This document shows, in pieces, positions 3,995 to 53,516 of a DNA stretch of 64,000 nt. Source of the DNA: a virus (taxonomy: Duplodnaviria > Heunggongvirae > Uroviricota > Caudoviricetes); the IMG/VR virus record IMGVR_UViG_3300043009_000101; one strand, written 5' to 3'. Position 1 is the stretch's first letter; each line of letters starts with the position of its first letter. Under the pieces are notes generated by a model. The model made no database searches and was not told where the DNA came from. It worked only from the letters and a program-made list of their open reading frames with translations. Both the position numbers and the translations under genes were made by a program.

Positions 3995-4300
3995 TAGCCG
4001 GCAGCTGCATAATACAAATGAAACTGAAAATAGAACAGGCATGGAAAAGAAAAAAATAAAAAATTTTCGTTTTTTCCTTTTCAATTACACAGTTTATGTA
4101 AGTCTAAATGCTACTATACAGATGTAAAGAGATAAAGGAAATCTTCTTTCCTAGAAAGGATACAAAAATATGAAATACCTTAGGAAATCACCCACCTAAA
4201 CAGTTAACTAAAAAACTTAAATTAACCGATAGGTAAAGGAAAAATCAACATAAAAATATTTGAAAAAATTGAAATTCAGGCTATACATTCTAAGCTGTAT

Positions 4301-4310
4301 TTGCTATAAT
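4301..4310 (+). promoter_or_regulatory. Extended -10 promoter (TGcTATAAT)
   Basis: tttgctataat about 50 nt upstream of the small ORF at 4360. Confidence 0.35.
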
Positions 4311-4359
4311 GAAGTAGCCAAAGGAAGCAACACTTCCTACATAGAAAGGACAAAAACTT

Positions 4360-4560
4360 ATGAAAAACTCTACTGAAACAAATTCTACACTGCTGAAATC
4401 CTTGGAACGCTTTAATGGACTTGCCATTGATGACACAAATGATTTACATCAATTTGAACAGGATTGCATGACATTCGGAAATGAAAATCTCCCTGAAGAT
4501 TTTCATTTCCTTCAATCCCCGATACTTACCTATGAGGAACCGAGAACCTTATACCATTAG
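4360..4560 (+). CDS. Small hypothetical protein (66 aa)
   Basis: AAAGGA RBS; strong hairpin immediately downstream. Confidence 0.4.
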   Translation: MKNSTETNSTLLKSLERFNGLAIDDTNDLHQFEQDCMTFGNENLPEDFHFLQSPILTYEEPRTLYH

Positions 4561-4571
4561 TAAAAATTAAA

Positions 4572-4612
4572 TCTTCAAGCTTGCCTATATGCAAGTCAGG
4601 CAAGCTTGAAGA
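4572..4612 (+). terminator. Long perfect hairpin (15-bp stem) downstream of the small ORF
   Basis: tcttcaagcttgcct...aggcaagcttgaaga; weak T-tail, so could be an attenuator rather than a terminator. Confidence 0.4.
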
Positions 4613-4697
4613 AATTGTGTAATTTACTAAATTTGCCCTTGAACTATGTAGAAAGTTGTGCTAGTATTTAGACAGATAAACAAAGGAGGACTTATAA

Positions 4698-7439: not shown

Positions 7440-9250
7440 TTATAATACTGTTTTGGTTTAAATTATGCCTGTGCTAAATTGTTTGGAAGAAAAAATTTGC
7501 CTGAGATTAGCTATGCAAAGCAAAACAAGTTTGCTTTGCATAGCTAGAACTTGCCTTAGACAAAAACTTGCCTGAGATTAAAGCTCGACTTAGACAGAAA
7601 CTACAACAAGACAAGGAAGCGAGGTCAGGCATACGAACGGAGTGAGTATGACTAGGTTTCGCTTCCTTGTCTTTTATAAGAATATGGCTGACAAATACCC
7701 TGCTTGTGTATGCAAGATAAAAGAAAATTATCTGACTTTTCTAAGAAAAATGTGGCTTAACACACCACTTGAAAGCAAAGCTTTCAGGTGGTGTACTAAG
7801 GGTGCTGTAAAGTAGCACCCTTAGTGCTGCCACAAAGAGATAAAGTTGTTTCCTACCTAAAAGCTCAAATAGTGTATTTTCCGATTGCCCCTTATGTATG
7901 AGTAATACCAAAGGTATTACTCATACATAAGGTAAAGGCACATGCCTTTACCTTATGGCTGGGCAGCTTCTGCAAGCTCGGAAAATTAGCTAAATGAAGT
8001 TTTACGAAATAAAGCCCGCCAGTATAGGTGCTAGACAAAAATCAAGACAATTACCAATAAGTGCCCAGAAAAGAATAGGTATCCTTTTGGATACCTATTC
8101 TGTACGGTAAATACCATATGTATTTACCGTACCATATGGGGCAATGCTCAGAAATCGCTCTGGTGTGAAATATGGAAAGAAGATGCTTTATATAAAGCAT
8201 ATTTTGATACAAAGAGATGGTGCTTCGTGGCTTAACAGACCACTTGAAAGCTATGCTTTCAGGTGGTCTACTAAGGGTACTGCCTAGCCAGTACCCTTAG
8301 TAGTGCCACGCTAGTGCCAGCTTTTGTCTAGTACCTAGAAACTGGCTTGTGCAAAATACACTAGCTGCCTAAGAAAATCGCAGCAAGATAAAGCGAGCAC
8401 AAGATGAAACTCGTACAGGCAAGAAGCTAGCACCAGAAAAATATGCAACTAGACACTACCACCAAGATACCCAGCTTATGCCTGCAAGATAGAACTATTC
8501 CTTACAAAATGCTACGGCAAGGCAAAAGCTGGTGAAAACAGAAACTAAGACAAGATAAGAATTACAACAAGATAAGGGAGCGAGGTCAGGCATACGAACA
8601 TAGTGAGTATGGCTAGGTTTCGCTTCCTTATCTTGTATCAGGCACAATACGGACAATACCCAGTGTTCATGCATGCAAGATAGAAGAAAAATTATCTGAC
8701 TTGTCTAAGAAAAAATTAGATAAAATTGTTTTCAATCTAAAAGCTCAAATAGGCCACTTTCCGAGCTTGCAGAAGCTCGGAAAGTGTGCTAAATGAAGTT
8801 TTAGAAAATAAAGCCCGTCAGTATATGTGGAAAGGAAAAATCAAGACAATTACCCATAAGTATGTCTAGAAATCGTTCTAGTCCAAAATATTGAAAGAAG
8901 ATGCTTTACATAAAGCAGATTTCTGCATAAAGAGATGGTGCTAGTGCCAGCCTTTGTCTAGTACAGAGAACTAGCTTGTGCAAAATACACTAGCTGCCTA
9001 TAATATTGCAGCAAGAAAAAACTGGCACAAAATAAAAACTTGTACCAATAAAGAGCTAGCACCAGAAGAGAGCAAGGCTAGACAAGAACTACGACAAGGC
9101 AAGGAAGCGAAGTCCGATACGAAGTAGCGAGGTCTCGCTTCCTTGATTGCAGAAGAAAGCAAGGCTAGACAAAAATACCCAAGAAGATAAACTAATATAC
9201 TATATTCATAGTTGCAAAATATGATTAGAAAGAGTAAAATATACATAGCA
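7440..9250. repeat. 1.8-kb gene-free region of mosaic, segmentally duplicated non-coding modules and hairpins
   Basis: Modules ('gaaaattatctgacttttctaagaaaaa', 'ctaaaagctcaaatag', 'ctaaatgaagttttacgaaataaagcccgccagtatag', 'gtgccagcttttgtctagtac', hairpin caaggaagcgagg...cgcttccttg) recur at about 7600-8340, 8560-9150 and again at 13930-14480. Confidence 0.6.
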
Positions 9251-9300
9251 AATATAAAACAGTCAGGCAAATGCCTGACTGCTAGAAAAGGAGAGATATA

Positions 9301-9843
9301 ATGGCTGAAACAAACATTATCAACACAAAAGGTTTCCGCATGTCCTTCGATGTGCAGATTTCCGACAAACTTATTCAGGCATACCGTGAGAAAGGCTATG
9401 AGCTAAGACTGACAAGAGTGGTCGAGGCGGAGAGTTGTGCGGAGAGTGGGACGGAAGATGAAAATCAACTCATCTTTATGCTCAGCCTGACTGGTGATGG
9501 GTTTACTGCTGGCGGCTGCCTGTACTTCTCTGTGGACTATGTGCATGGATTGCTGCTTTGTAAATACAGCCTGAGTGAGCTGGAACCGTTCCTGTACTGC
9601 CGACTGGCTGAACTTGATGATTGCGGTGGCTGTGTGGATTTAATGGCTGGAAAGGGCATTCTGGTTTTGACAGAGGACTTGGCGGAACACATGCTGGAAC
9701 TGGCAATCTGGGATAAAAAGCCTGTTTCAGAAGATGCAGATATGTATGCAGACTTGGCTGCGAAAGCTATGGAAGTGCAAATAGAGTTGGAGCAGAATGT
9801 ATACCCGGAATTAGTCGGAAGAGTGCATTGGACGGATGATTAG
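9301..9843 (+). CDS. Hypothetical protein (GC-rich, about 48% GC)
   Basis: AAGGAG RBS; 180 aa; GC clearly above surroundings. Confidence 0.55.
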   Translation: MAETNIINTKGFRMSFDVQISDKLIQAYREKGYELRLTRVVEAESCAESGTEDENQLIFMLSLTGDGFTAGGCLYFSVDYVHGLLLCKYSLSELEPFLYCRLAELDDCGGCVDLMAGKGILVLTEDLAEHMLELAIWDKKPVSEDADMYADLAAKAMEVQIELEQNVYPELVGRVHWTDD

Positions 9844-9845
9844 CT

Positions 9846-10169
9846 ATGGCGATAACAGATAAATTGGATTTTACGGATATTTGCGAGTATCTGGAACAAT
9901 ACTACTATCACTTGGATATAGAGCAGAAATTTGTTGACGGTGAACTTCGTGCGGGCATTAAACTGCAAGTAAATGTTCACATGAACGATGGCTCAGAGCA
10001 AGTCGTTTCTTTACTAGACAGTGCTGAAAAAGACTGCATGGTTTCTTTAAAAGGAAAAAGAATGGAAAGCTGGGCTGGTGCAAAACCTGAGGCAAAACAT
10101 TATGCCCGCCTGAAAAGAAATGTAAACTACCCCTCTGCTAAAGCAAGGGTGCTTTCGGAACTGTTCTAG
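9846..10169 (+). CDS. Hypothetical protein, translationally coupled to the upstream gene
   Basis: Start 3 nt after the upstream stop; 107 aa. Confidence 0.5.
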   Translation: MAITDKLDFTDICEYLEQYYYHLDIEQKFVDGELRAGIKLQVNVHMNDGSEQVVSLLDSAEKDCMVSLKGKRMESWAGAKPEAKHYARLKRNVNYPSAKARVLSELF

Positions 10170-10174
10170 CAACA

Positions 10175-10480
10175 GTTTTGTAAGTTCTTCTGTTTTAACA
10201 AGGGACTCTTTCAATTCACAAATTTACCAGACTCAGTTATTAGAAATAGTAACTACGATAGCTAGGATGTAGACACCCTTGGTTGACACATCAGACCATT
10301 GCTCTGTCGTATACATTTAAGTTGGTAGAGGTAAGAAGAAGCCTGTGATGTATACATGTAAGCCTATCTTATCATTGTCGAGATGTAGTCAGGATGTTTT
10401 AATGGTAACAGTTAAAGCGGAATGCAGGACAACATTCAATATGCTTCGGCATATTGAATGTTGAATTACATGATTTAGTT
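10175..10480 (+). ncRNA. Candidate omega-RNA (OMEGA guide RNA) of the IscB
   Basis: About 300-nt ORF-free, structure-rich region directly 5' of iscB. It includes a perfect 14-bp hairpin with cUUCGg loop (caacattcaatatg-cttcgg-catattgaatgttg, 10430-10463). Position matches the known IscB-omegaRNA arrangement. Confidence 0.5.
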
Positions 10481-10499
10481 CATGAGAAAGGAAGCCTAT

Positions 10500-11834
10500 A
10501 TGGTTTATGTTTTAAATAAAGATGGTAAACCTTTAATGCCTACAAAACGGCATGGCAAAGTTAGACATCTTTTAAACAGCAAAAAAGCAAAAGTTGTAAG
10601 AAGAGAACCTTTTACAATTCAGTTGCTTTATGAGTCTACAAATTATACCCAAGAACTCACATTGGGTATTGACACAGGCAGTGGTACATTAGGTTCTGCT
10701 GTTTCAGATACAAATGGTAATATTGTTTATGCTGCACAAGTGCAAGTTAGAAACGATATTACTAGAAAAATGACAAGAAGAAGAAAATATCGAAGAACGA
10801 GAAGAAATAGAAAAACAAGATACCGTAAACCAAGATTTCTAAATAGAAAGAATAGTATTAAAACAGATAGATTCAGTCCAACAATGGTTAGTAAAATTCA
10901 TAGCCATACAAAAGAGATTGAATTTGTAAAAACAATACTCCCTATCAAAAATCTTGTATTAGAAACAGGTCAATTTGATACAGCTTTAATGAAAAACCCT
11001 GATTTAGCAGACCCGTCTGTAAAACCTTGGGGTTATCAGCAAGGACCAAATTATGGATATCAAAATACAAGAGCTCGTATTTTAGATAGAGATGAGCATA
11101 CTTGTCAGCATTGTCTTGGTAAATCTAAGGATACAAGCCTTGAAGTACACCATATTATTTTCAGAGCAGAAGGTGGTAGTGATGATGATGAGAATCTGAT
11201 TACATTATGCCATACTTGTCATACCCAATTACACAATGGAGAAATTGAACTTAAGCTCAAAGGTACTAAAAAAGGTAATTTAAGCTATGCTACTCAAATG
11301 AATAGTATTAGAAAACAATTACTTAGACAATACCCGGAAGCTAAGGAAACATTTGGCTATATTACAAAAGCAAATCGTTTCAACTTGAACATTGGTAAAG
11401 ACCATTACTTAGATGCTTGTGTAATAGCAAGTGGTGGTAAAGCCATTACTTTTAAAGCAGAAACACTGTACCTTAAAAAAGATGTTGCTAAAGGAGATTA
11501 TCAAAGAACAAATGGCAAAAGAAGTGAAAAGAAACTACCAAAAGGAAAAGTTCTAGGTTTTATAAAATTTGATAAGGTCAAATATAGAAACACAATTTAC
11601 TTTATTAAAGGAGTTCGTACACAAGGTACTTGTGAGTTAATGGATATTACAGGAAAAAAGATGAATTTTAGCTATTTGCCTTATGGCCTGAAAACTCCAA
11701 AGTTGCTTAACTGTACTAGAATACAACCTAGAAAGACAAGATTATGCATAGAAAGGAGGTTAGCTGCGATTCCCCCGCATCTAAAGATACGGTGGTTTCC
11801 TTGCGGCGATTCTCATGAAAATAATGAAATATAA
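10500..11834 (+). CDS. iscB: IscB, IS200/IS605-family RNA-guided nuclease (Cas9 ancestor)
   Basis: PLMP N-terminus (KPLMPT); RuvC-I IDTGSG; Arg-rich bridge helix RRRKYRRTRRNRKTRYRKPR; RuvC-II LVLETGQFD; HNH CQHC...LEVHHI...ENLITLCHTCH; RuvC-III DHYLDACVIA. AAAGGAAG RBS before ATG at 10500. Confidence 0.9.
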   Translation: MVYVLNKDGKPLMPTKRHGKVRHLLNSKKAKVVRREPFTIQLLYESTNYTQELTLGIDTGSGTLGSAVSDTNGNIVYAAQVQVRNDITRKMTRRRKYRRTRRNRKTRYRKPRFLNRKNSIKTDRFSPTMVSKIHSHTKEIEFVKTILPIKNLVLETGQFDTALMKNPDLADPSVKPWGYQQGPNYGYQNTRARILDRDEHTCQHCLGKSKDTSLEVHHIIFRAEGGSDDDENLITLCHTCHTQLHNGEIELKLKGTKKGNLSYATQMNSIRKQLLRQYPEAKETFGYITKANRFNLNIGKDHYLDACVIASGGKAITFKAETLYLKKDVAKGDYQRTNGKRSEKKLPKGKVLGFIKFDKVKYRNTIYFIKGVRTQGTCELMDITGKKMNFSYLPYGLKTPKLLNCTRIQPRKTRLCIERRLAAIPPHLKIRWFPCGDSHENNEI

Positions 11835-11874
11835 CTAAGCAGCCGCTCCGAAGGAGCGGCTGCTTTTGGCTGGT

Positions 11875-12650
11875 GCTAGATATTGTCTTGTGCTAGATAT
11901 TGTCTTGTGCATAATAGATACTGGTGCAAGATATAAACTCGTGCAAAACTAAAAACTTCGCCTGTATATTGCTAGGGCTGAAAAATACCCGATGAATGTG
12001 GCGGGAATAGAATTATTACCTATACAAAACAATAAAATTGCTCTGTGAAGATGGAAAGTTGGGCGAAGCAAAGTATAGTGCCAGCTAAGAACTACGGCAA
12101 ACAAGCAGTAAGGCAAGGCAGAAACTAATGCAGGCGGAAATTATGGTAAGATAAAAACTAATACAAGCAAGGGTGCGAGGTAACGAAATAAATTTCGTGC
12201 CTACGAAATTTATTATCTAGTGAAAGCTCTGCTTTCACTAGATAGAAAAGTTACCGAGGTCAGGCGAACGGAGTGAAGCCTAGGTTTCGCACCCTTGTAT
12301 TGTATAAAAAATACTAGTCTGATTCGTTGCGAATAAACATCTTGCCTGATTCCTTGCTAGTAGAGGAAATACAGACATCACAGAGTATAGATAATACGGA
12401 CACTGGCACACAGTAAGTGCTTGCACAAAAAGTAAAGGGCACAAGATTGTTTCTTGCACAAAGTAATGGAAAGCACAAGAAAATATCTTGCACAATACAA
12501 AGGGCGAATACTAGTGGCAATACCCGAATTTAGTGCTGAATTATACACTAATTATATAAATACTGATTTACATTTGTATATTGTTGTGCTAAAATAATGG
12601 CAGAAAGATATCTAGTAAAGATAAGAAAGAAAAACAAGAAAGATAAGGAG
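11875..12650. repeat. Non-coding repeat-rich region
   Basis: Tandem 'tgctagatattgtcttg' x2, composite hairpin caagggtgcgagg...(about 110 nt)...cctaggtttcgcacccttg (12166-12297), and reiterated 'ttgcacaa' motifs. Confidence 0.5.
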
Positions 12651-13786: not shown

Positions 13787-13799
13787 GAAAGGCTGACTG

Positions 13800-14600
13800 A
13801 TTTGTGGGCAAGCAAAAAGATTATATGTGCCTGAGTGAAAATGGTGCTAGATAATGGCTGGTGCTAGAAAGAAACTGGTGCAAGGAAGAAACTGGTACAG
13901 GCAGAAGCCAGTACAAGCAGAAATGCCCCGAAAAGAATAGGTATCCTTTTGGATTTGTCCCTCATACTAGGTAAATTGGGACAATTTACCTAGTATGAAA
14001 GCAAACCACGGGGTTTGCTTTCATCATAGGGGCAACCTATTCTGTACGGTAAATCCCTACTGGATTTACCGTACCATATGGGGCACTGGTACAAGCGGAA
14101 ACTGGTACAGGCAGAAACTGGTACAAGCAGAAACTGGTACAGGCAGAAACCAGTACAAGCAAAAACTTGTACAAGCAAGGAAGCGAAGTCCGTTGAGGGT
14201 GTATACCCGAAAACGAGGTCTCGCTTCCTTTTCTTGTTTAGAATAATATGAAAAATAAAAGAAAATTATACGACTTTTCTAAGAAAAAAGTAGATAAAGT
14301 TGTTCTTGTTCTAAAAGCTCAGAAAGTGAAGTTTCTGGACTTGCAGAAACTCGGAAAATGCGGTTTCTGAGCTTTTACGAAATAAAGCTCACCAGTATAT
14401 GTGCTGGGTGAAAAAATGAACAATTACCAATAACTATGCCTAGAAATCGCTCTAGTGTGAAATATTCGAAACAAGTGCTTTATATAAAGGTGATTTTGGC
14501 ACAAGATAGATACAGGCACAAGATAGATACAGGCACAAGATAGATACAGGCAAAGAAAGGCAGCCGTGCTATGCACGGCTGCCTTTTATTACAAATATAT
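13800..14600. repeat. Non-coding repeat region (copy of the 7.4-9.2 kb modules plus 16-bp and 18-bp tandem repeats)
   Basis: actggtacaRgcagaa x~5 (14086-14178); hairpin caaggaagcgaagtccg...cgaggtctcgcttcctt (14175-14232); gcacaagatagatacag x3 (14499-14552). Confidence 0.6.
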
Positions 14601-14615: not shown

Positions 14616-15548
14616 CTAGTGCGAGTTTCGGTCTGCCTGATGCAAGAGCAACAAGTCATTGTAAATACCCTCGCCTAGCAATTGGGTGTACTTCGCCTGC
14701 ATTTTTTGTTGGTTGCGGGTGTTCCAATTGTATGGGTGCATATGATAGCAGACGAGTGTGCTGACGAGAAGCTTATCGGCGGGATAATCATAAAATAAAG
14801 AAAGATACCCACCAACATTCGCATGCTGATAGTAATGCGAGATGCCGTTGGGGTCTGTGGTTTTCGTTCTGGGTTTGCCTATATCATGCAAGCTGGCTGC
14901 TATGGCAAGGGGAGAAGATGCGGGTGAGGAGAGAGCTACGGTGTTGGCAACTTCGCTTAGATGCTCGCCTAGGGTTCTGGTGTGATACGGGTTGTTCTGG
15001 TTGTAGTCTTGATACAGCTGCATTGGTGCAAGATAATCGCCATAATAGGTTGGGTAAGTTGAGGAGGGATAGTAAAGCTGTATATTATTCCACCCCTCGC
15101 CATAGCTCGGTGTGGTCCAGAGCCTGAGCATACGGTTGATAACTTTCTTGCCGGCATGTCTGCTTGGGCGAGATTTGTCTTGCTCGATGCATATCTCTGG
15201 CGGAGTGGCTACAATTATACAAGTACACTGCGGGAAAGGTGTGCTGGCTTTAGTACATGCTTCCCGTATCAGAGCAAGAGTGGGAATACGGTGCTTCGCC
15301 TGTAAATTCGTTGCATCATATATGACAGATTGCCCGTGAGTTATCGCTTCGGCTAGTCGCTGGTGCAATACCCGATAGAGTTCCTCATTCTTGCACTGCT
15401 CGTTCACATTGTGGAATAGTTCCTTGCGAAGTTCATCTGTGCTGAGCAAAATGGTTGGGTTTGAGGTGGAGCTGGCTGCGAGCAGCTGCTGTGCTAAGGT
15501 GCTCTTGCCACTTCCAGGCAAACCTACCAGCATCGTGAATTCTAACAT
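14616..15548 (-). CDS. Polynucleotide 5'-kinase (T4 Pnk-like P-loop) fused to an HD-domain phosphohydrolase
   Basis: GLPGSGKST Walker A, STDELR and VIYDATNL (compare T4 Pnk GCPGSGKST / VIISDTNL); C-terminal HD signature (SLHDIGK ... HQADRNSH). GC about 52%. Confidence 0.75.
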   Translation of the reverse strand: MLEFTMLVGLPGSGKSTLAQQLLAASSTSNPTILLSTDELRKELFHNVNEQCKNEELYRVLHQRLAEAITHGQSVIYDATNLQAKHRIPTLALIREACTKASTPFPQCTCIIVATPPEICIEQDKSRPSRHAGKKVINRMLRLWTTPSYGEGWNNIQLYYPSSTYPTYYGDYLAPMQLYQDYNQNNPYHTRTLGEHLSEVANTVALSSPASSPLAIAASLHDIGKPRTKTTDPNGISHYYQHANVGGYLSLFYDYPADKLLVSTLVCYHMHPYNWNTRNQQKMQAKYTQLLGEGIYNDLLLLHQADRNSH

Positions 15549-16852
15549 GGGCGGGAAACTCCTTGCACGGGGGAGGGCTGGTCGGAGAGTGTATTAAGAA
15601 AAGATTCTATCTCGTGCAATTTAAGGTATCTGCCTGCTCTTGTCTTGATGTAGTTGTTCTCTTTGCCGAGATACTCGTTCCGTACATACCCTCGATATGC
15701 TTTCGGTACATGCTGGTCTATCCACTGCATGTCGCTCTTGCGGTCTGGGTTGGTGCGGGCGGAGGAGAGCTGCATAATGTAGGAATGAGTGATGCTCTGC
15801 TTGGCTTGGATGTACTGGAACACGAGGGTGGCTTTGGCGAGGGCTTCTGGCTGATAGGCTGCGGGCAGCTTTGCATATAAGTCATCCCATGTGCCTTGGT
15901 CTATCGCTTGGATTATCGTGTTGGCTGAGGTGAGGGTGGCGAGAATCTTGTGCATGCCTACATAATCGTTGTACTTTATCTTGACTTTGTATCCGTCTAT
16001 GTCTAACACGAAGCCTTCGGCTTCGCTGCATTGCTTGCTGTCTAGGGCTTGGAGAACTTCGTCTAAGGTTGTTGTGTAAAGAGTTGTGGTAAGCAAATTG
16101 TAAGAGGCGGCGATGGTTGTAAGGAGGGAATAAGACAATTCCTCGCCTGTGGAAATGCTTCGCATTCCCACAAGGTATAAGCCTTGCTGCTCTTCGGTGT
16201 ATTGCACAATATGCTTATCGTTAAGGCTGATATACTCGAATATGGCTGTGTAATCCGAATAGGCTTGGAGGAATTGGAGATAGTTGGGATGCGACTGTAG
16301 GTAATGCATACCGCCAGCTAGACGATAACTAGATGCGGGGTCGAGGGACTGACTGCCTGACATGACAAGGTGGTTGTGAAACCACCTTGCACTTTGCATG
16401 GAACCGTCCAGCTTGTTCGTGAATTCTACACGATTGGCTGACTGTATGAGCTGCCGAATTCGTGCTTCGCTGTTCGCTTCGCACTCATTCAGATTCTGGA
16501 ACTTGCGGAATGGTGTGAGTATCAGCTCGCCTGTGTGAATGTCTAACACTAGACTGCGGCACTCTTTGTAGAATTCGTTGTGAACTTGCCAGAAATCTGG
16601 ATAGGATAAGGACTGGCTAATCGGCTTGAAGAGCTGATGAAAATTGCCGTATCGTATCAGCAGCATGCCTTCATATTCGTGGAAGATAAGCGGTGCTAAG
16701 AGTTCCGTGTAAGCGGGGTTGTCGAGTTGGGTGACCCAGTATTCTAGGCACGATGAAGATTCTGGATACTCCCAGAGTGCTTCTTCGCCAAATCGCTCGA
16801 TGTAGGCTGACTTGATTTCTTTGAACTTTGCTTGTACTGGATTCCAATTCAT
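15542..16852 (-). CDS. ATP-dependent RNA ligase (Rnl-type nucleotidyltransferase)
   Basis: Motif I KLDGSM, motif IV EGFVL, motif V KVKIK; overlaps the kinase gene by 7 nt (operon); GC-rich. Confidence 0.7.
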   Translation of the reverse strand: MNWNPVQAKFKEIKSAYIERFGEEALWEYPESSSCLEYWVTQLDNPAYTELLAPLIFHEYEGMLLIRYGNFHQLFKPISQSLSYPDFWQVHNEFYKECRSLVLDIHTGELILTPFRKFQNLNECEANSEARIRQLIQSANRVEFTNKLDGSMQSARWFHNHLVMSGSQSLDPASSYRLAGGMHYLQSHPNYLQFLQAYSDYTAIFEYISLNDKHIVQYTEEQQGLYLVGMRSISTGEELSYSLLTTIAASYNLLTTTLYTTTLDEVLQALDSKQCSEAEGFVLDIDGYKVKIKYNDYVGMHKILATLTSANTIIQAIDQGTWDDLYAKLPAAYQPEALAKATLVFQYIQAKQSITHSYIMQLSSARTNPDRKSDMQWIDQHVPKAYRGYVRNEYLGKENNYIKTRAGRYLKLHEIESFLNTLSDQPSPVQGVSRPC

Positions 16853-40134: not shown

Positions 40135-41343
40135 TTAAGCAAGGTTTCTTTGCATTAAATCGTATAAATAAGGTTCAAGCTGAGCAATAACATCACAAAC
40201 TAATGCATTACCCATAAGATAATATCTGGATTTCTCCGATACAGACGGAACATTTGTCCAATTATCTGGGAAAGTCATAATTCGCTCGGCTTCAATTGGT
40301 GTAATTCTGCGGATACCATTCTCATCTTCGACAAAATGAGATTCTCTGCGAACAGCGGATTCCGATGTTATCATTGTACGAGCTGGCTTTTTTAAATCAT
40401 CTGGGAAAGACATTGCCCCTTGTGTGAACACATATGGTCTGCCGTCATGCTTGCTGATGCGGTTTACTCGTTTGCCAGCTTTGGTTGTTGCAGCTTTTGT
40501 TTTTTCTTCGGGTGTTAGATACATATGTGATGGAATGTTATCGGCTGATTCAAGCACATCACCTAAAGTTACAGGCTTTGGTGTAATCGTATTTAATGGC
40601 TGCACCTTTTCCGTAGTAATGATACCCGATTCCATTAAGCCATTGGCATCAAAATCGAAACCAAACTGCATAATATCCCGCTCTGCTCGAATGTCTGTTG
40701 TTTGTACAAATCGTGTTTCTTGTAATGGCTGATATGGAAAAGCAAGTGTGAAAATATTCTCACCTTTGTATTTTCGATTCCATGCGAGAATATACACACG
40801 ATTTCTTTTTGTAGGAAAACCATAATCTGCAGCATTGATTACCCGCCAAGCTACATCGTATCCACAGTCATCAAATGCTTTTAGAATAATGCCAAAATCT
40901 CTTCCTCGCTGGTGCTTTGGTATTCGCAGCAAGTTCTCTACATTTTCTAATAAAACAAATGGTGTTTGCTTTGCTTTGAGAATATCTATAATTTCCCAGA
41001 AAAGTGTACCTCGTTTGCCTTTCAGACCTTTTCCTCCGCCAGCTACGGCTACGGAATAATCTTGACATGGAAAACCACCCACAAGCAAATCATGTTCTGG
41101 CAGAGTTGTTTTATCTATTAAAGTGATATCCTCGTTACTTACTTCGCCTCCGAAACGAGCTTTGTAACATTCGTATGCTGGCTGCATTTTTGTTTTAGGT
41201 TCGTACTGGTCTGCCCAGACAAAATCCCAATGTCCGTCATTTTCAATCGCTTTACCAGATTCATCGAAGGATTTGATATGATTTAAGCCAACACGGAAAC
41301 CGCCTACGCCAGCAAAAAGTTCACAAACTCTAAATTTTCTCAT
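40135..41343 (-). CDS. DNA (cytosine-5)-methyltransferase with no adjacent endonuclease (orphan)
   Basis: Motif I FAGVGGF, motif IV GGFPCQ, motif VI ENV; no endonuclease-like neighbour. Confidence 0.9.
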   Translation of the reverse strand: MRKFRVCELFAGVGGFRVGLNHIKSFDESGKAIENDGHWDFVWADQYEPKTKMQPAYECYKARFGGEVSNEDITLIDKTTLPEHDLLVGGFPCQDYSVAVAGGGKGLKGKRGTLFWEIIDILKAKQTPFVLLENVENLLRIPKHQRGRDFGIILKAFDDCGYDVAWRVINAADYGFPTKRNRVYILAWNRKYKGENIFTLAFPYQPLQETRFVQTTDIRAERDIMQFGFDFDANGLMESGIITTEKVQPLNTITPKPVTLGDVLESADNIPSHMYLTPEEKTKAATTKAGKRVNRISKHDGRPYVFTQGAMSFPDDLKKPARTMITSESAVRRESHFVEDENGIRRITPIEAERIMTFPDNWTNVPSVSEKSRYYLMGNALVCDVIAQLEPYLYDLMQRNLA

Positions 41344-41547: not shown

Positions 41548-43527
41548 CTAAATACCCGCTAGATGCAATAAATCTTCTTCACTTAGAATTGGCACACCGA
41601 GTTGCTGTGCTTTTTTATTCTTTCCGCTTGTGGATGTTACATCATTATTAATAAGATAGTTTGTTTTACCAGTTACACTGCCTGTTACAGTTCCGCCTAA
41701 GGATTCAATCCATTCGGAAGCTTCGTTTCGATTCTTGAATTTGAATACTTTACCTGTGATACAGAAAGTCAAACCACTAAACGGCTGAGAAGAAGCCAAA
41801 GTATTGGCAGAAACACCCGCTGGTTCAATCGTACCCGAAGGCATAACGAAGTTCAAATTGCTGCAAGTTCTTACATACATGCCAAGATTATCACCTTGAC
41901 AGAAGAAATCGTAAATGGCTTCATTCATTTGTGTGCCAATACCCTCGATAGTGGCAAAGTTGAATCCTTGATACAGAGCATTGTAGAAATTGTTGTAATC
42001 ATAATTCATTGCTTTGGCAATATCTTTGGCAACTTTCTTACCAACATTTGGTATACCCATCGCATAAATTACTCTGTCTAAGGTTGTTGTTCTTGCCGTT
42101 TCGATAGCTTGCTGTAAAGCTTCATATGATTTCTCGCCAAAGCCTTCAATATCAGGCACAACAGGTATATCCAAAATCTCGAAAATACTGTCTGGTGTTG
42201 TAATGTAATGAGCCTGAACCAGTTTCTCTAAGGTGCTTTCAGATAAACCCACGATATTCAAAGCATTTCTTGAAACATAATGAGAAAGCTGTTTTAGTTT
42301 TCTGGCTGCACAATCTGGATTGGTGCAATACAGAACTTGGCTGCCGTCTGCTCCTTGACGAATCGTTGTAGGTGCTCCACAAACTGGGCATTGTGCTGGA
42401 ATTTCTGGGCGAGCTGGATTGGCTACAACTTTATCTATGGTAGGAATAATCATATTGGCTTTGTAAACTTCAACAACGGAATTTGGTGCAATTCCTTTTT
42501 CGTTCAAGAAAGAAATATTGTTGCCCGTTGCTCGGCTGACTTGTGTATTATCAATTTCTACGGTATCAAAAATAACAACTGGATTGATTCTGCCTGTACG
42601 GGAAGTCTGCCAGTCAATTTTACGAACTGTTGTCTGATATGTTTCATCTTGCCATTTAAATGCCATACCCCAGTTTGGATATTTATCGGTTGTTCCTCTT
42701 GCTCGTGCTTTCTGCAAGTCATCAATCATAAATACCAAGCCATCGACTGGATAGCCGTAGCGGGAAACAGCATTTGTGAATGATGCAATACCCTCAGGGA
42801 TGGATTCAGCGGGAATGGAAGCATATGGAACTGTGTCAAAATGCATAGTGGACAAGAAAGCAAGGTCTTGTGTAAATGTTTTGGACTTTGGCTGAACGAG
42901 TTCAAATGCTTTGAACTCGATATTACGGCTGGCTGCCTCTCTGCTGTCAAGTTTTCGTACACTGCCACTGGCTAAGGAACGAGCCGTAGTGTACTTCTGC
43001 ACACCATCTTTGAGAGAAGCATTGATACGATTTAATGTATCATAGGAAATCAGAGCTTCACCACGGACAACAAGATAGTCTGTATAAGGAATGGTCATAG
43101 GCAAGCCGTGAACATACGGTGCATTGTGAGTAACATTTTCACCAATCGTTCCGTTTCCACGGGTAACAAGTTTGGTGAGTTTTCCGTTGTCATATGTGGC
43201 TACTAATGTCAAACCGTCAAGTTTCCAAGACAGGACTACATTTTCATTTCTCGCCCAAGCTACGATTTGTGCGGGGTCTTTTGTTTTGTTTAAGGATAAA
43301 GCTCGTTTTTCATGTTCCTCTTTTTTCAGTTTGCTGACTACTTCATACCCTACTTGATGAATAATGCTATTTGGTACGATGTCATTTGTTGCTTTTTCAT
43401 AGGCTTCAAGCTGATTGTAAAGAGCATCATATTCTTTATCGGACATAACAGGCTGACCAAGAGAGTAATAAGACTTAGATGCCTGTTGTAATTTCTCGTT
43501 TAAGGCTACTGCTTCATTATGGTTCAT
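41548..43527 (-). CDS. ligA: NAD+-dependent DNA ligase LigA
   Basis: KLDG adenylation motif, Cys4 zinc finger CPVCGAP...CTNPDC, HhH and a C-terminal BRCT-like region; 659 aa. Confidence 0.9.
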   Translation of the reverse strand: MNHNEAVALNEKLQQASKSYYSLGQPVMSDKEYDALYNQLEAYEKATNDIVPNSIIHQVGYEVVSKLKKEEHEKRALSLNKTKDPAQIVAWARNENVVLSWKLDGLTLVATYDNGKLTKLVTRGNGTIGENVTHNAPYVHGLPMTIPYTDYLVVRGEALISYDTLNRINASLKDGVQKYTTARSLASGSVRKLDSREAASRNIEFKAFELVQPKSKTFTQDLAFLSTMHFDTVPYASIPAESIPEGIASFTNAVSRYGYPVDGLVFMIDDLQKARARGTTDKYPNWGMAFKWQDETYQTTVRKIDWQTSRTGRINPVVIFDTVEIDNTQVSRATGNNISFLNEKGIAPNSVVEVYKANMIIPTIDKVVANPARPEIPAQCPVCGAPTTIRQGADGSQVLYCTNPDCAARKLKQLSHYVSRNALNIVGLSESTLEKLVQAHYITTPDSIFEILDIPVVPDIEGFGEKSYEALQQAIETARTTTLDRVIYAMGIPNVGKKVAKDIAKAMNYDYNNFYNALYQGFNFATIEGIGTQMNEAIYDFFCQGDNLGMYVRTCSNLNFVMPSGTIEPAGVSANTLASSQPFSGLTFCITGKVFKFKNRNEASEWIESLGGTVTGSVTGKTNYLINNDVTSTSGKNKKAQQLGVPILSEEDLLHLAGI

Positions 43528-47697: not shown

Positions 47698-48552
47698 TTA
47701 TTTCAATTTGTTAAGAATACCCGCTTGCAAATCATGCAGATTATACAAATGCGGAATGGAATTGAAAACATCTTGCAGAGTTTTCTTGGAGCTGAGCCAG
47801 CCGTTGCCGTCTGTGAACCAAACGAATACGGGCTGCGGATTGTCAGAAGCTGGCGGATTGGAAGTGATTTGCTGAGAAATCAGCTTGTAGCTTCTCGCTG
47901 TTTCAGAAATCTTCGAGCCGTGGGTGGCATAGAAATTGGTTTCGATTAGGTAGATATGCTTGTTGCGAACTAGTGCAAAATCGAATTTCTTTGTTGTGAG
48001 GTAAGATAAATCTAAACCAAACTGTTTCTTTAAGAATGGAAGGGTTGGTTCTTTGAAATAATCTTTATTTGGAAGAAGGTGGGAAGATGTGAAATAGGAT
48101 TCGACAATTTCTTCCATCTTGTTTCCACTTCGGTTCTTACGGGCATTGGTATCTAATCCAACTTCGATACCCAGTGCATAATCGTAAAGATTGTGAATGT
48201 TGTGGTTTTGCAGCATGTCAAACAAACCAGTTTCTTTCATGAACTCTATGTAATCTTCGGTGGTATTTACTGTATTGATATTGTCGAAGTCGAACTGCTT
48301 TGCCTGAACGGAAAGCTGGCTGGTGCGAATTGCAAGAAGATACGGTATCACTTTGAGTGATTGCGGATAGGTTTCGCAGATATATCGGAAATCTTGCTCG
48401 ATGTTGGAACTGCCAATTAGGGAGTTTAGAAGATTGAGTTCCACTTTGTACTGAGCAAGATGCTCGTAAACTTTGTTGAAATCGACAAAATAATCATAGG
48501 TGGCTAAGTTTGGTGTGAATGTTGCTAACCATTCGTTGAAATCCCTTTCCAT
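47698..48552 (-). CDS. Type II restriction endonuclease, DpnII/MboI family
   Basis: FNEWL...KVY...LNSLIGSSNIEQDF...IYLIETNFY..GSKISETARSYKLI...HLYNLHDLQAGILNKLK matches my recollection of R.DpnII end to end; AAGGAGG RBS. Confidence 0.7.
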   Translation of the reverse strand: MERDFNEWLATFTPNLATYDYFVDFNKVYEHLAQYKVELNLLNSLIGSSNIEQDFRYICETYPQSLKVIPYLLAIRTSQLSVQAKQFDFDNINTVNTTEDYIEFMKETGLFDMLQNHNIHNLYDYALGIEVGLDTNARKNRSGNKMEEIVESYFTSSHLLPNKDYFKEPTLPFLKKQFGLDLSYLTTKKFDFALVRNKHIYLIETNFYATHGSKISETARSYKLISQQITSNPPASDNPQPVFVWFTDGNGWLSSKKTLQDVFNSIPHLYNLHDLQAGILNKLK

Positions 48553-48649: not shown

Positions 48650-49639
48650 CTAGATGAGATTCTCGTCTAGAAACTGCATCAATTCTTTTGCTACTGCATA
48701 CACAACATCTACAGTAACAGCATTGCCAAACTGCTTATATGCCTGAGTGTCGGATACAACTTGCTGCCAATCACTTGGGAAACCTTGCAGCTTTCTCGCT
48801 TCATTTGGTGTCAGTCTGCGAATATTCGTTTTAGTTTCATCACAATACCGTTCATAATTCACATTATCCGTATAATAATTGTCTTGGCTTGCTCTGTGCA
48901 TTTTGTGCATAGTTGCAACTAAGGTGTTGCAAATCTTATTATCTATTGTTGGCTCAGCCTTAAAGTTTTTCGTTCCCTCGCTCATAAGTGCTTTGATAAG
49001 TACTTTGCTGACAAAATACTTGGCAGGAACATCTTCATCAAGCAAATCTTGTGCAGTCAACTGCAATGGCTGGGTCTGTGGCTGTGGGAAAGCAAACTGT
49101 GTATCTTTAAAAGCATCTTTTCGCAAAGCTACAATAAATACCCGCTTCCTTCTTTGTGGAATGCCAAAATCTGCTGTATTCAGAACTTGATAATTTACTG
49201 CATACCCGCATTCTTCGAGTTCGTCTTTGATTCTTTGGAATGTCTTGCCTTTGTCGTGTGTAACAAGGTTCTTTACATTTTCCAAAACAACTGCTTTGGG
49301 ATGATGCTTGAGTATAATGCTCTTAATAATAAAGAACAATGCCCCTCTGCCTTTTTCATCCTCAAAACCTTGCCTTTTGCCAATACTAGAAAATGGCTGG
49401 CATGGAAATCCGCCAACTAAAATGTCGTGAGGCGGAATTTCATCTAAATGCTCTGTAATATCTCCTTCTACAATGTCTGTGCGAATGTTGGCTCGAAATG
49501 TCTGGCATGCATATTTGTCTATGTCATTGGACCAAACCATATCAAAGCCTGCATTGGAAAAGGCTAAATCAAATCCGCCAATGCCTGCAAAAAGGCTCAC
49601 TGTTTTGTATTTGTAAGTTGTATGTGTAATTCTTTCCAT
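48650..49639 (-). CDS. DNA (cytosine-5)-methyltransferase (M subunit of the adjacent DpnII-like endonuclease)
   Basis: FAGIGGF, GGFPCQPFS, ENV motifs; immediately upstream of the endonuclease on the same strand. Confidence 0.9.
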   Translation of the reverse strand: MERITHTTYKYKTVSLFAGIGGFDLAFSNAGFDMVWSNDIDKYACQTFRANIRTDIVEGDITEHLDEIPPHDILVGGFPCQPFSSIGKRQGFEDEKGRGALFFIIKSIILKHHPKAVVLENVKNLVTHDKGKTFQRIKDELEECGYAVNYQVLNTADFGIPQRRKRVFIVALRKDAFKDTQFAFPQPQTQPLQLTAQDLLDEDVPAKYFVSKVLIKALMSEGTKNFKAEPTIDNKICNTLVATMHKMHRASQDNYYTDNVNYERYCDETKTNIRRLTPNEARKLQGFPSDWQQVVSDTQAYKQFGNAVTVDVVYAVAKELMQFLDENLI

Positions 49640-51584: not shown

Positions 51585-52313
51585 CTATTTTTCTTTCTTA
51601 AAATTCTTAGATATTACTGCATTAAATTGCTGCGGGTCGAACCAATAGCAGCCATTACAAACCTTGGTGTGTTCATCACCAAAAATATAGCTCTCGGAGT
51701 ACCCTAGCTGCTTAGCATCATATCGTATGCCTGATTCTCTGCATTCTTTACAATGTTGTCGCTTAGCTATATTTACTGCTTTGCTAAGTACTTGGAAATC
51801 TTCCAATTTTTGTTCGTTTGGATTCTCGTTTTCTCTATCATCATATCTACCGTTCTTATGGTCTATTTCCATACCGTTACTGGATATTATATCTAATACT
51901 GCACAGTGCTTGCCTTTAAGTGCTTTCTGCACATCTGTAGAAATGGTACGGGCAGATTTTGTTCGATTCTTATTGAAGCCATCTAATTTTACAGAAGCTA
52001 CTCTTGGGCCTTTCTTCGTTCTTGTAATTAAATATCGTTTACCTAGATAAGAAACAGAATCTCTAGCCCAAGTACAACCATTGGTTGTTTCAAAACTAGA
52101 ATGTATTGTTTTGAGATATTCTATACTGAGCTTCTTGCCAATACCATACTCCACATCAGATAATATTTCAAAAATCTGGCCAAGATATGCAGAAGTTAGG
52201 TGTATATCTTGCAAATTTGTCTGCACATAGGTAATTAGAGCTTGTTTATCTTGTTGCTGAAAAAGAAGTTCAAGTTGTGCAATCTGTGTTTCGTTTAAGT
52301 CCTTCATATGCAA
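51585..52313 (-). CDS. HNH-family endonuclease (candidate type II restriction endonuclease)
   Basis: EIDHKNGRYDD...NPNEQ...HCKEC (HNH/His-Me core) plus CxxC pairs; 6 nt downstream of the C5-methyltransferase gene. Confidence 0.65.
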   Translation of the reverse strand: MHMKDLNETQIAQLELLFQQQDKQALITYVQTNLQDIHLTSAYLGQIFEILSDVEYGIGKKLSIEYLKTIHSSFETTNGCTWARDSVSYLGKRYLITRTKKGPRVASVKLDGFNKNRTKSARTISTDVQKALKGKHCAVLDIISSNGMEIDHKNGRYDDRENENPNEQKLEDFQVLSKAVNIAKRQHCKECRESGIRYDAKQLGYSESYIFGDEHTKVCNGCYWFDPQQFNAVISKNFKKEK

Positions 52314-52319
52314 ATTTCC

Positions 52320-53516
52320 CTATCCCACATATTCGAAAGTAAACAATTTCTCAAAAATACGAACCATTACAGGCACAACAATAGAATTACCAAACTGTTT
52401 GCGGGCTTTGGAATCAGATTGCACAGATAAAATCTTCGTAATATTTTCCTCTGAAACACCCATTAGTCTGCCGAATTCTTTTACAGATAATTTACGGACA
52501 TTGCCTGTGGCATCAATTACAGCAGTTACAGTATTGTGGTTCTCTTTAATCGTAGGAACAATACCGTTGATGCTCACTATCTTGCTGGAATCGAACTTAC
52601 TCTTCATATAATTGCCTAAGGAAACAATACTATTAAACCGTTCTAGTTGGTTTATGAAATCTGTATCTTTATACTTTTCTGCACAGCTTTTAGCATACTC
52701 GTTGTGAATATATAATCTGGATTCAGGCTGAATGTCTGTATCTAAATAATCCCGCAAATATTTTGTAAGCGAAATCGGTTCAGGAAAAGTGTACGGAGTT
52801 GGATGATTTAGAATACTCACCATATAGCACCGTTCCCTATTCTGTGGTATATTTCCATATTCTGCTGCATTCAGAACCTGATACGAATTTGTATACCCGA
52901 TTGATTCCAAATAAGCACACCAATCATCAAAATCTGCTTTGTTTCGCTTGGAAATGATTTGCTTTACATTTTCCATAAACAGAATCTGCGGAAGTTCTTT
53001 CCGTGAAGCAATCAATTCGTTGAACAACCTTTCAATTTCCCAAAGCAAACCGCTCCTCGTACCACTGCCTTTTTTCATGCCTCGCAAATTCCCACTCATA
53101 GACAAATCTACACAAGGAAAACTGTATGTGAGCATGTAAGTATAAGTTTCTGTGTTGGTGATACCCAGTTCTTCTGCCTGTATTCTTGTGATACTGCCAA
53201 GGTTGTGTGTGGCTGCAAATTCGTTGTAAACTTTTCTGCACCAAGGTTCTTTTTTCTTCAACAATGCTTCTTTGCTTAATGCCTGTTTGTCGTCTATGGT
53301 GATTTGCAAGTTGGCAAGATAGTTCACCACTTCTTCGAAACTGAGATTGGCAGATGCATCTGGTATGACTTCGGTATGCACGGCTGCATACGATGTGTTG
53401 GCTGCTACATTCCATTCAGATATGCGGTAATGCTCGTAATCTATATCTAATTGGTCTAGTGCCATTGCTTGGCTGCCATAGCCTGCAAATAGTTCTATTA
53501 ATCTTACTTTCTTCAT
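52320..53516 (-). CDS. DNA (cytosine-5)-methyltransferase with variant motif I
   Basis: LFAGYGS (motif I), SFPCVDLS (PC), FMENV; 398 aa. Confidence 0.85.
   Translation of the reverse strand: MKKVRLIELFAGYGSQAMALDQLDIDYEHYRISEWNVAANTSYAAVHTEVIPDASANLSFEEVVNYLANLQITIDDKQALSKEALLKKKEPWCRKVYNEFAATHNLGSITRIQAEELGITNTETYTYMLTYSFPCVDLSMSGNLRGMKKGSGTRSGLLWEIERLFNELIASRKELPQILFMENVKQIISKRNKADFDDWCAYLESIGYTNSYQVLNAAEYGNIPQNRERCYMVSILNHPTPYTFPEPISLTKYLRDYLDTDIQPESRLYIHNEYAKSCAEKYKDTDFINQLERFNSIVSLGNYMKSKFDSSKIVSINGIVPTIKENHNTVTAVIDATGNVRKLSVKEFGRLMGVSEENITKILSVQSDSKARKQFGNSIVVPVMVRIFEKLFTFEYVG

Follow-up and report, generated by a model that had tools for sequence, protein, structure and literature searches.

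A probable non-autonomous ISC-type insertion sequence carrying iscB and a HEARO-type omega-RNA at the end of an ORFan gene

The window, a stretch of 64,000 nucleotides that was analysed as a whole, contains a locus of about 1.7 kb, extending from position 10122 to 11814-11821, that most probably is a non-autonomous insertion sequence of the IS200/IS605 family (ISC-type). It carries only iscB and an omega-RNA and would work by restorative homing, and we assign this interpretation a probability of roughly 0.87. Directly in its favour are the protein family and its catalytic motifs, the homology and covariation of the omega-RNA, both boundaries, a further copy whose flank differs, and the purifying selection on iscB. 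Against it count the failure to find an empty-site allele, the lack of a TnpA in the 64 kb, the slightly worn state of the window copy compared with its sister copy, and upstream promoter candidates that are consensus matches only. IscB is an RNA-guided nuclease and the ancestor of Cas9.

The IscB protein and its gene

The open reading frame at 10482-11834 on the plus strand encodes 450 amino acids and contains, in this order, the motifs KPLMPT and IDTGSG, an arginine-rich stretch, ETGQFD, CQHC...VHHI...NLITLCHTCH and DHYLDACVIA. Its N-terminal part is covered by the complete Pfam profile RRXRR (PF14239; 2.2e-53, 181 bits at a cutoff of 25, all 174 profile positions), and an HNH domain (PF01844; 8.5e-13) at residues 208-252 follows the RuvC-II motif and precedes RuvC-III. 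The insertion of HNH within the RuvC fold is the feature that separates IscB from IsrB. More than 7,000 homologues were found, and in the PDB, IscB chains such as 7UTN and 7XHT match best (about 1e-43), with Cas9 chains far lower. Residues D64, E161, H223/H224, N238, H247, H308 and D311 (numbering of the 450-residue frame) do not vary in an alignment with eight homologues, and the catalytic D/E/H/N/H/D residues align with the corresponding residues of OgeuIscB. The initial annotation had described an intact IscB with all hallmark elements in order and intact catalytic residues, and this agrees with our analysis: as judged from its sequence the protein is intact, and the copy is apparently functional, with a predicted nuclease activity.

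Translation from the in-frame ATG at 10482 yields 450 residues and from the ATG at 10500 yields 444. The true start is probably the latter and not ATG 10482, as all relatives begin with MVYVL there and the ribosome-binding site AAAGGAAG is located 6 nt upstream. The iscB coding sequence is thus placed at 10500-11834 (plus strand) on the basis of Pfam, the homologue alignment, the PDB matches, the dN/dS value and a comparison of the C-terminus with the second copy, L001. In that comparison, a 1-nt deletion in the window copy causes the frame to run through the transposon left end (LE) into the flank, so that the ~20 codons at its end result from frameshifted read-through. In the homologue alignment, this change lies beyond the region that is conserved in the family.

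Boundaries of the element

The initial annotation had proposed to define the ends by searching for other copies, and such a copy (L001/L002) was indeed found in other metagenome contigs. It is 94% identical over exactly 10121-11821 and its flanks are unrelated. The left limit of the element is G10122, as indicated by the second copy and by the Rfam model, and it lies 48 nt inside the upstream reading frame; the boundary is set there because the base preceding the scaffold varies among loci. On the right the element ends at 11814-11821, and the transposon proper probably ends at 11814. A target-site duplication is not visible at the junctions of either the window copy or L001.

Both ends carry hairpins with a CTAAAG loop (10131-10149 and ~11772-11795), which are homologous to the hairpins of TnpA-carrying relatives. 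The LE subterminal hairpin at 11772-11795 (plus strand), with the core CCGCATC-TAAA-GATACGG, was recognized from the end layout of the relatives and from DNA folds, and it is overlapped by the tail of the iscB frame. It folds with -6.8 kcal/mol (z ~0) in the window, versus -14 kcal/mol (z -3.9) in L001. The layout of LE hairpin, ~25-nt spacer and AT-rich motif is the same in non-autonomous and TnpA-carrying relatives, which end ~20-70 nt past their last gene (iscB, or tnpA if present).

The flanking DNA accounts for what lies outside these limits. In the ORF annotated at 9846-10169, the final 16 codons and the stop (10122-10169) come from the element, which leaves an ORFan gene with a part outside the element at 9846-10121 (plus strand), as delimited by the ORF list, by a database match to itself only, and by the onset of L001 similarity. 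Among 5.8 billion proteins only this ORF itself was found, so that no uninterrupted allele was recovered. Neither of the two ORFs at 9301-10169 matches a Pfam family, in line with their earlier description as hypothetical, and the plus-strand promoter candidates upstream of 9301 are consensus matches only. On the other side, a GC-rich hairpin at 11837-11865 (plus strand) was picked up by a scan for terminator-like structures and lies in the flank, beyond the stretch that the window has in common with L001. Because only TTGG follows on the plus strand, the scan lists it for the minus strand alone. This hairpin is likely the terminator of the interrupted upstream operon, now also situated downstream of iscB.

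A different anatomy had been proposed initially, in which the element spans 10170-11869, the omega-RNA is contained in the ORF-free gap, and a 3' hairpin with a T-run at 11839-11869 marks the right end. The gap at 10170-10481 does lack long ORFs, and both hairpins on which that proposal drew exist, the 3' one with a 13-bp stem. However, 10121/10122 is where both the covariance-model match and the sequence shared with the second copy start, the similarity stops at 11821 and hence before the hairpin, and the relatives end with an LE hairpin and ATAAA instead of a terminator. This anatomy can be regarded as refuted.

The omega-RNA

Judged by its covariance-model match, the RNA encoded 5' of iscB on the same strand is a HEARO-type omega-RNA. 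The scaffold extends over 10122-10499 (plus strand), its 5' end being the transposon right end (RE), and is delimited by the HEARO match, by the boundary in common with L001 and by RNAalifold. The position and strand given in the initial annotation stand, but the RNA starts at G10122 and not at 10170, and it is ~378 nt long instead of ~300 nt. The covariance-model search that had been recommended gave a match of HEARO (RF02033) to 10122-10392 with 82.3 bits, an E-value of 1.8e-16 and coverage of model positions 1-211 of 211. As this score lies 0.7 under the curated cutoff of 83, standard Rfam annotation misses the omega-RNA of the window: a scan of the whole window at the gathering threshold gave no match, and HEARO emerges only with an E-value threshold. 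The sister copy reaches 90.2 bits and nine relatives reach 99-127, so that all ten tested related loci are above the Rfam cutoff, and their matches begin at the scaffold start GT[G/A]AAC or at most one base off. The shortfall in the window goes along with an insertion of 53 nt and with a first hairpin that is weakened. The model spans only the first 271 nt of the scaffold, and about 107 nt more, including two hairpins, precede the start codon.

The region can be aligned with omega-RNAs of relatives that pass the gathering cutoff. An RNAalifold analysis of 22 relatives gave 56 consensus pairs, 37 of which display double-sided compensatory changes (counted without a shuffle control), and an independent run yielded 13 helix segments that are 80-100% canonical. 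The window copy and L001 themselves differ by one compensatory pair, C>T at 10314 together with G>A at 10350. The minimum free energy of the whole upstream region is not unusually low (z = -1.45), and the structure thus rests on the covariance model and on covariation, not on folding energy.

The first stem-loop of the scaffold, CCCTCTGC-TAAA-GCAAGGG at 10131-10149 (plus strand), was defined from alignments of the relatives and DNA folds. A hairpin of the form CC..CTAAAG..GG is present at this place in all relatives, and DNA folds indicate that the window version is weaker than that of L001. On the opposite strand, the same segment is the RE subterminal hairpin, which a TnpA would recognise. 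It is followed at 10155-10207 (plus strand) by the 53-nt insertion, which is lineage-specific, as the alignments contain it only in the window and in L001, and which appears as inserted residues in the Rfam alignment. In folds it holds a 7-bp hairpin (10159-10165/10171-10177) whose loop includes the TAG stop of the upstream ORF.

The omega-RNA terminal hairpin at 10430-10463 (plus strand) has a UUCG loop. Its stem is perfect, as had been noted before, but comprises 15 bp and not 14 when the loop-closing C-G pair is counted. Folds of the individual omega-RNA 3' parts place a hairpin at this terminal position in 23 of 23 relatives, with many different stem sequences. On the strength of these folds and of the alignments, the 15-bp hairpin is an enlarged form of the 4-7 bp terminal hairpin of the relatives. 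The possibility that it serves as a terminator or element end was considered and rejected, since it is the homologue of that terminal hairpin.

Guide and target-adjacent motif

Because the scaffold begins at G10122, the guide is predicted at about 10102-10121 (plus strand), that is, in the 16-20 nt of flanking DNA directly 5' of it. This position is taken from the known layout of IscB omega-RNAs (Meers et al., bioRxiv 10.1101/2023.03.14.532601), and the guide length would be of the same order. Among the window, L001 and 19 other loci (about 20 related loci), the 25 nt that precede the scaffold show no relation to one another, and the guide 16-mer occurs once in the window. The predicted target matching the segment ~10102-10121 reads GCCCGCCTGAAAAGAAAT.

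At the other end, both copies terminate in CATGAAAA, and the relatives terminate in ATAAA at the same position. The last bases common to both copies, ATGAA(AA) at 11815-11821 (plus strand), likely represent the target-adjacent motif rather than element sequence. The predicted ATGAAA fits the published NWRRNA motif of OgeuIscB, which is a resemblance and not a test. Empty-site alleles were not found in three scans, which covered viral and metagenome contigs with the left flank joined to the right flank across 0-15 nt, and metagenome contigs with 22 nt of the left flank alone; nor was the window's own contig, Ga0376461_0000030 of sample 3300035506 with 112,780 bp, found in these collections.

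Transposase, relatives and selection

No Y1 transposase had been seen near the locus initially, and a tblastn search with the TnpA proteins of five related elements confirmed this for the entire 64-kb window (best E 0.035). For want of a TnpA the element is filed as non-autonomous, but this is nothing special, as a lack of TnpA is the commonest state of ISC and IscB elements (Meers et al., bioRxiv 10.1101/2023.03.14.532601; review PMC13565253). Some close relatives possess a 134-residue Y1 TnpA (PF01797, 4e-32) directly downstream of iscB. The nearest relatives of this kind show ~61-63% protein identity and come from MAGs of gut Firmicutes.

Between the window copy and L001, iscB shows a dN/dS of 0.19 at a dS of 0.19, which indicates that the gene is under selection, and the omega-RNA region has diverged by 4%. 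The window IscB has no excess of derived amino-acid changes: at conserved positions it carries 6 derived substitutions versus 9 in the sister copy, and at outgroup-invariant columns 1 versus 5.

In a rival view, the locus is an immobilised, decaying relic, which has lost excision or a working ribonucleoprotein and retains a reading frame that is intact in appearance only. The terminal hairpins that are weaker than in the sister copy, the frameshifted C-terminal tail, the HEARO score just under the Rfam cutoff and the missing TnpA would all suit such a relic. It is difficult to reconcile, however, with the low dN/dS and the retention of every catalytic residue, with a window lineage that has fewer derived substitutions than its sister, and with an omega-RNA divergence far below that of synonymous sites; the altered tail, moreover, is outside the family-conserved region. 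We consider a relic quite improbable.

Proposed mechanism

For the favoured reading, a mobile element working by restorative homing, the following course can be proposed. The element would have inserted in sense orientation at the extreme 3' end of the ORFan gene, between its last codons and the terminator hairpin. Transcription of the upstream operon would then read through the flank into the element, and this read-through would supply the omega-RNA, with the 5'-most 16-20 nt as guide and 10122-10499 as scaffold, to which IscB translated from ATG 10500 would bind. A TnpA acting in trans, presumably encoded elsewhere, may excise the element, and the rejoined empty site would consist of the guide-matching flank followed by ATGAA(AA). 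This empty site would be cut by the HNH and RuvC domains of the IscB-omega-RNA complex, and the element would be regained by recombination with an occupied copy.

The host replicon

For both exact IscB protein variants, that of the window and that of the second copy, the longest contig on record measures 576,898 bp, which suggests that two copies of the element reside in one replicon. This replicon is at least 577 kb in size, rich in ORFans and equipped with several restriction-modification genes, and no counterpart was found among the phage, plasmid and IMG/VR records searched. The segment 9250-12650 gave no megablast match in phage and plasmid collections, and two ORFs have no relatives in IMG/VR. 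For about 40 ORFs, PHROGs and Pfam matches were limited to methyltransferases, restriction enzymes, ligases and repeat domains, and there are no tRNAs.

It can be asked in this context whether IscB has been domesticated and is kept by the large replicon, for example to cut competing or uninfected genome variants, and is not a selfish transposon at all. An ORFan-rich contig of this size with several restriction-modification genes, the lack of a nearby TnpA and the purifying selection on iscB could be understood in this way. On the other hand, the guide is nothing more than neighbouring flank sequence, as it is in any ordinary copy, and neither a CRISPR array nor another source of guides is present; the second copy with different flanks indicates transposition, and both TnpA-type ends are kept. 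Domestication thus appears very improbable to us. A further idea is that the element has multiplied inside a giant ORFan-dominated replicon, be it a huge phage or a giant extrachromosomal element of another kind, that homing by IscB could work there as a gene drive among co-resident variants of the genome, and that the enlarged omega-RNA could be an adaptation of this lineage. We regard this combination as unlikely.

Comparison with known systems and implications

In its domain order the protein resembles OgeuIscB (PDB 7UTN, 7XHT), with PLMP, RuvC-I, bridge helix, RuvC-II, HNH, RuvC-III and a C-terminal TAM-interacting region, both lack a REC lobe, and in both a large structured RNA is encoded 5' of the gene in the same orientation. 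The match to OgeuIscB (E ~1e-43) consists of two separate stretches, the N-terminal and the catalytic regions, and the protein is shorter, with 444 residues here and ~421 in its clade versus 496 in OgeuIscB. The omega-RNA of the window, in turn, is longer than those of its own clade owing to the 53-nt insertion and the 15-bp terminal hairpin. With respect to HEARO (RF02033), the full-length match and the position and orientation relative to the HNH/RuvC reading frame agree, whereas the score just under the cutoff and the end of the model ~107 nt before the start codon differ.

The layout agrees with the one described by Meers et al. (bioRxiv 10.1101/2023.03.14.532601), in which the RE provides the scaffold, the guide comes from outside the element, transcripts start outside it, and genes lying upstream tend to have its orientation. 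The present locus shares the RE-derived scaffold, the outside guide and the co-oriented upstream gene with ISGst of Geobacillus stearothermophilus (bioRxiv 10.1101/2023.03.14.532601) and with ISC elements (PMC13565253, its ref. 72), which likewise have an AT-rich motif flanking the LE and are usually non-autonomous. It differs from them in its host, an ORFan-rich metagenomic replicon, and in that no cognate TnpA is seen in the available data.

Little of this is biologically new, as IscB-omega-RNA elements, the frequent absence of TnpA and transcription from outside are already established. The locus shows, however, that the Rfam cutoff for HEARO can narrowly miss a genuine omega-RNA. It also shows that an IscB omega-RNA begins inside the gene where the element landed, so that boundaries should be taken from a comparison of copies and not from gaps between ORFs. 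For the family, it offers a candidate that belongs to a compact IscB clade (about 421-444 residues), has a defined guide position and is predicted to use an ATGAA(A) motif, and the giant replicon around the element may be of more interest than the element itself.

IscB protein

The plus-strand ORF at 10482-11834 (450 aa) carries every motif that the initial annotation had listed, and its product is, as judged from the sequence, an IscB: Pfam returns RRXRR PF14239 over the full profile (2.2e-53) and HNH PF01844 (8.5e-13), and IscB chains are the top matches among solved structures (OgeuIscB 7UTN/7XHT, about 1e-43), in line with the original call. A search of 5.8 billion proteins yielded more than 7,000 homologues, mostly of 421 aa and with 65-70% identity to the window protein. 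Both gut Firmicutes MAGs and IMG/VR viral contigs commonly contain relatives at about 60-67% identity. The closest homologue, P0001 (434 aa, 92% identity), is encoded on two short JGI contigs, L001 and L002, which hold a second copy of the element. An alignment of the window IscB with eight homologues shows no variation at the catalytic residues of RuvC and HNH. All aligned relatives begin with MVYVL, equivalent to ATG 10500, and as AAAGGAAG lies 6 nt 5' of this codon, it is likely the start codon of iscB.

Element boundaries

The search for other copies, suggested at the outset as a way to define the ends, fixed the limits, as by BLAST the second copy is 94% identical to the window over exactly 10121-11821, with no similarity beyond. 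The base preceding GT[G/A]AAC varies across about 20 loci, which places the left boundary at G10122. This second-copy similarity and the match to the HEARO RNA family thus move the left boundary from the previously assigned 10170 to a position 48 nt within the upstream ORF 9846-10169, the final 16 codons and stop of which are element sequence; this ORF has no homologue except itself. On the right side, both copies end ...CATGAAAA, beyond which the window continues with TAATGAAAT... and L001 with AGAACTCG... A 3' hairpin had been put forward as a possible end of the element, but the shared sequence stops before it, giving a boundary at 11814-11821. Because similarity stops at 11821, the 13-bp hairpin at 11837-11865 belongs to the flank. 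It scored as terminator-like in a scan, and the simplest reading makes it the terminator of the operon (9301-10169) that received the element. No empty-site allele was found.

Omega-RNA scaffold

At the Rfam gathering threshold the entire window gave zero matches. Under an E-value threshold, HEARO RF02033, the family now called IscB omega-RNA, is matched at 10122-10392 over 211/211 model positions (82.3 bits, E 1.8e-16), so that the covariance model does recognize the proposed omega-RNA, though with a score that falls 0.7 bits short of the 83-bit cutoff. The same model scores 90-127 bits in ten related loci, where matches begin within 0-1 base of the conserved GT[G/A]AAC. A consensus structure from 22 aligned scaffolds comprises 56 pairs, 37 of which stay paired via two-sided changes, and a separate RNAalifold run gave 13 helix segments that are canonical in 80-100%. 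The MFE of the upstream region alone is unexceptional (z = -1.45).

After the first stem-loop, the window's lineage possesses a specific 53-nt insertion (10155-10207) with its own 7-bp hairpin, in the loop of which the stop codon of the upstream ORF is located. The omega-RNA of L038, a Ruminococcaceae MAG copy, contains its own insertion of ~32 nt (~130-175) after the ACCAGACC helix; this site differs from that of the window's insertion, indicating that scaffold insertions are recurrent in the clade. The hairpin noticed initially at 10430-10463 (15 bp, UUCG loop) is the terminal hairpin of the omega-RNA. As relatives carry a hairpin of 4-7 bp with many differing stem sequences at the equivalent place, it represents a genuine conserved omega-RNA element, whose enlargement to 15 bp is specific to the window's lineage.

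Transposon ends and transposase

Related elements come in two sizes: those of about 1.6 kb carry only iscB, and those of about 2.0 kb also encode a 134-aa Y1 transposase (PF01797, 4e-32) directly 3' of it. In the latter, autonomous relatives, tnpA is co-oriented with iscB, the beginning of tnpA overlaps the final ~14 iscB codons, and a left end (LE) of about 70 nt follows (TnpA at 4233-4637 in loci L046 and L054, 1525-1929 in L042, and 4233-4610 in L040, cut at the locus end). Both types terminate with a CTAAAG-loop hairpin, a spacer of about 25 nt and TATAAA; the first stem-loop of the omega-RNA shows the same kind of CTAAAG-loop hairpin. The window LE is laid out in the same way: the hairpin core occupies 11775-11792 and, beyond a spacer, ATGAA(AA) lies at 11815-11821. 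The motif is probably TTCAT on the TnpA strand, and hence ATGAA on the iscB strand, a reading we infer because relatives have TTTAT. According to Meers et al. (bioRxiv 10.1101/2023.03.14.532601), the transposon right end (RE) gives rise to the IscB scaffold, the guide sequence and the start of transcription lie beyond the element, and the motif is found next to the LE; the window layout agrees with this. A tblastn search of the 64-kb window with five related TnpA proteins found no TnpA; the best E value was 0.035. The reported absence of TnpA is thereby confirmed, but it is not a special feature, as TnpA is missing from most IscB/ISC elements (bioRxiv 10.1101/2023.03.14.532601; PMC13565253).

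Condition of the window copy

Between window and second copy dN/dS is 0.19 (dS 0.19, dN 0.036), and when differences are polarised with outgroups, the window copy shows no surplus of derived amino-acid changes. The omega-RNA regions differ at 16/379 positions, including one compensatory pair, 10314/10350. The ends of the window copy seem slightly worn: its RE hairpin has fewer pairs, and its LE region has a folding energy of -6.8 kcal/mol (z about 0), compared with -14 kcal/mol (z -3.9) in L001. Whereas the L001 iscB terminates at a TAA within the loop of the LE hairpin, the window iscB is frameshifted by a 1-nt deletion near 11776, and its ORF crosses the LE and motif into the flank and ends ...ENNEI*. 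None of these end and tail changes touches the part of the protein that is conserved. The longest contig on record for each of the two exact IscB sequences is 576,898 bp, which suggests that the two copies may reside on one replicon.

Surrounding replicon

IscB-carrying contigs extend up to that length. At 14616-63552 the window is ORFan-rich, mostly on the minus strand, and matches no phage hallmark genes. It encodes an AAA_33 kinase/HD protein (14616-15548) adjoining a T4-type RNA ligase (15542-16852), an NAD-dependent DNA ligase (41548-43527), three C-5 DNA methyltransferases (40135-41343, 48650-49639, 52320-53516), DpnII-type (47698-48552) and IceA-type (51585-52313) restriction enzymes, and four giant proteins of 741-1720 aa, three with InlB B-repeats. 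The remaining window ORFs belong to no Pfam or PHROG family, the window contains no tRNA genes, and it had no matches in the phage, plasmid and IMG/VR data tried. Upstream of the interrupted gene, ORF 9301-9843, without a Pfam family, is locally GC-rich (about 0.51 versus about 0.38 around it).

Intergenic regions around small gene cassettes (7548-9280, 11870-12650, 13790-14600) are made up of dispersed repeat modules without an Rfam family match. The repeat families measure 50-240 nt at 65-90% identity (e.g. 8688-8930 versus 14262-14504), and units of 16-17 nt are repeated in short tandem arrays at 7548-7602, 11873-11910, 13858-13896, 14085-14177 and 14498-14556. A perfect inverted repeat occurs within this repeat-rich intergenic sequence at 7890-7932, its 20-bp arms separated by 3 nt. 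Among IMG/VR contigs with related elements, Rfam identified a Pistol ribozyme at 174-246 of L011, about 2.5 kb 5' of the element there, and tRNA gene clusters adjoining the elements in L009 and L018.

Proposed mechanism

The best-supported account is standard IscB homing. Read-through transcripts of the upstream operon would yield an RNA with a guide at about 10102-10121 and a scaffold at 10122-10499, and IscB would bind this omega-RNA (10102-10499). A consensus scan found no plus-strand promoter-like sites at 10170-10480, which weakly supports dependence on outside transcription. Within the window, the guide 16-mer occurs only once. Excision by TnpA would leave a rejoined site, the guide-matching flank followed by ATGAA, that may then be cut and repaired from the occupied copy. 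The initial annotation recognized the locus correctly, but it is an ordinary non-autonomous IscB-omega-RNA insertion sequence.
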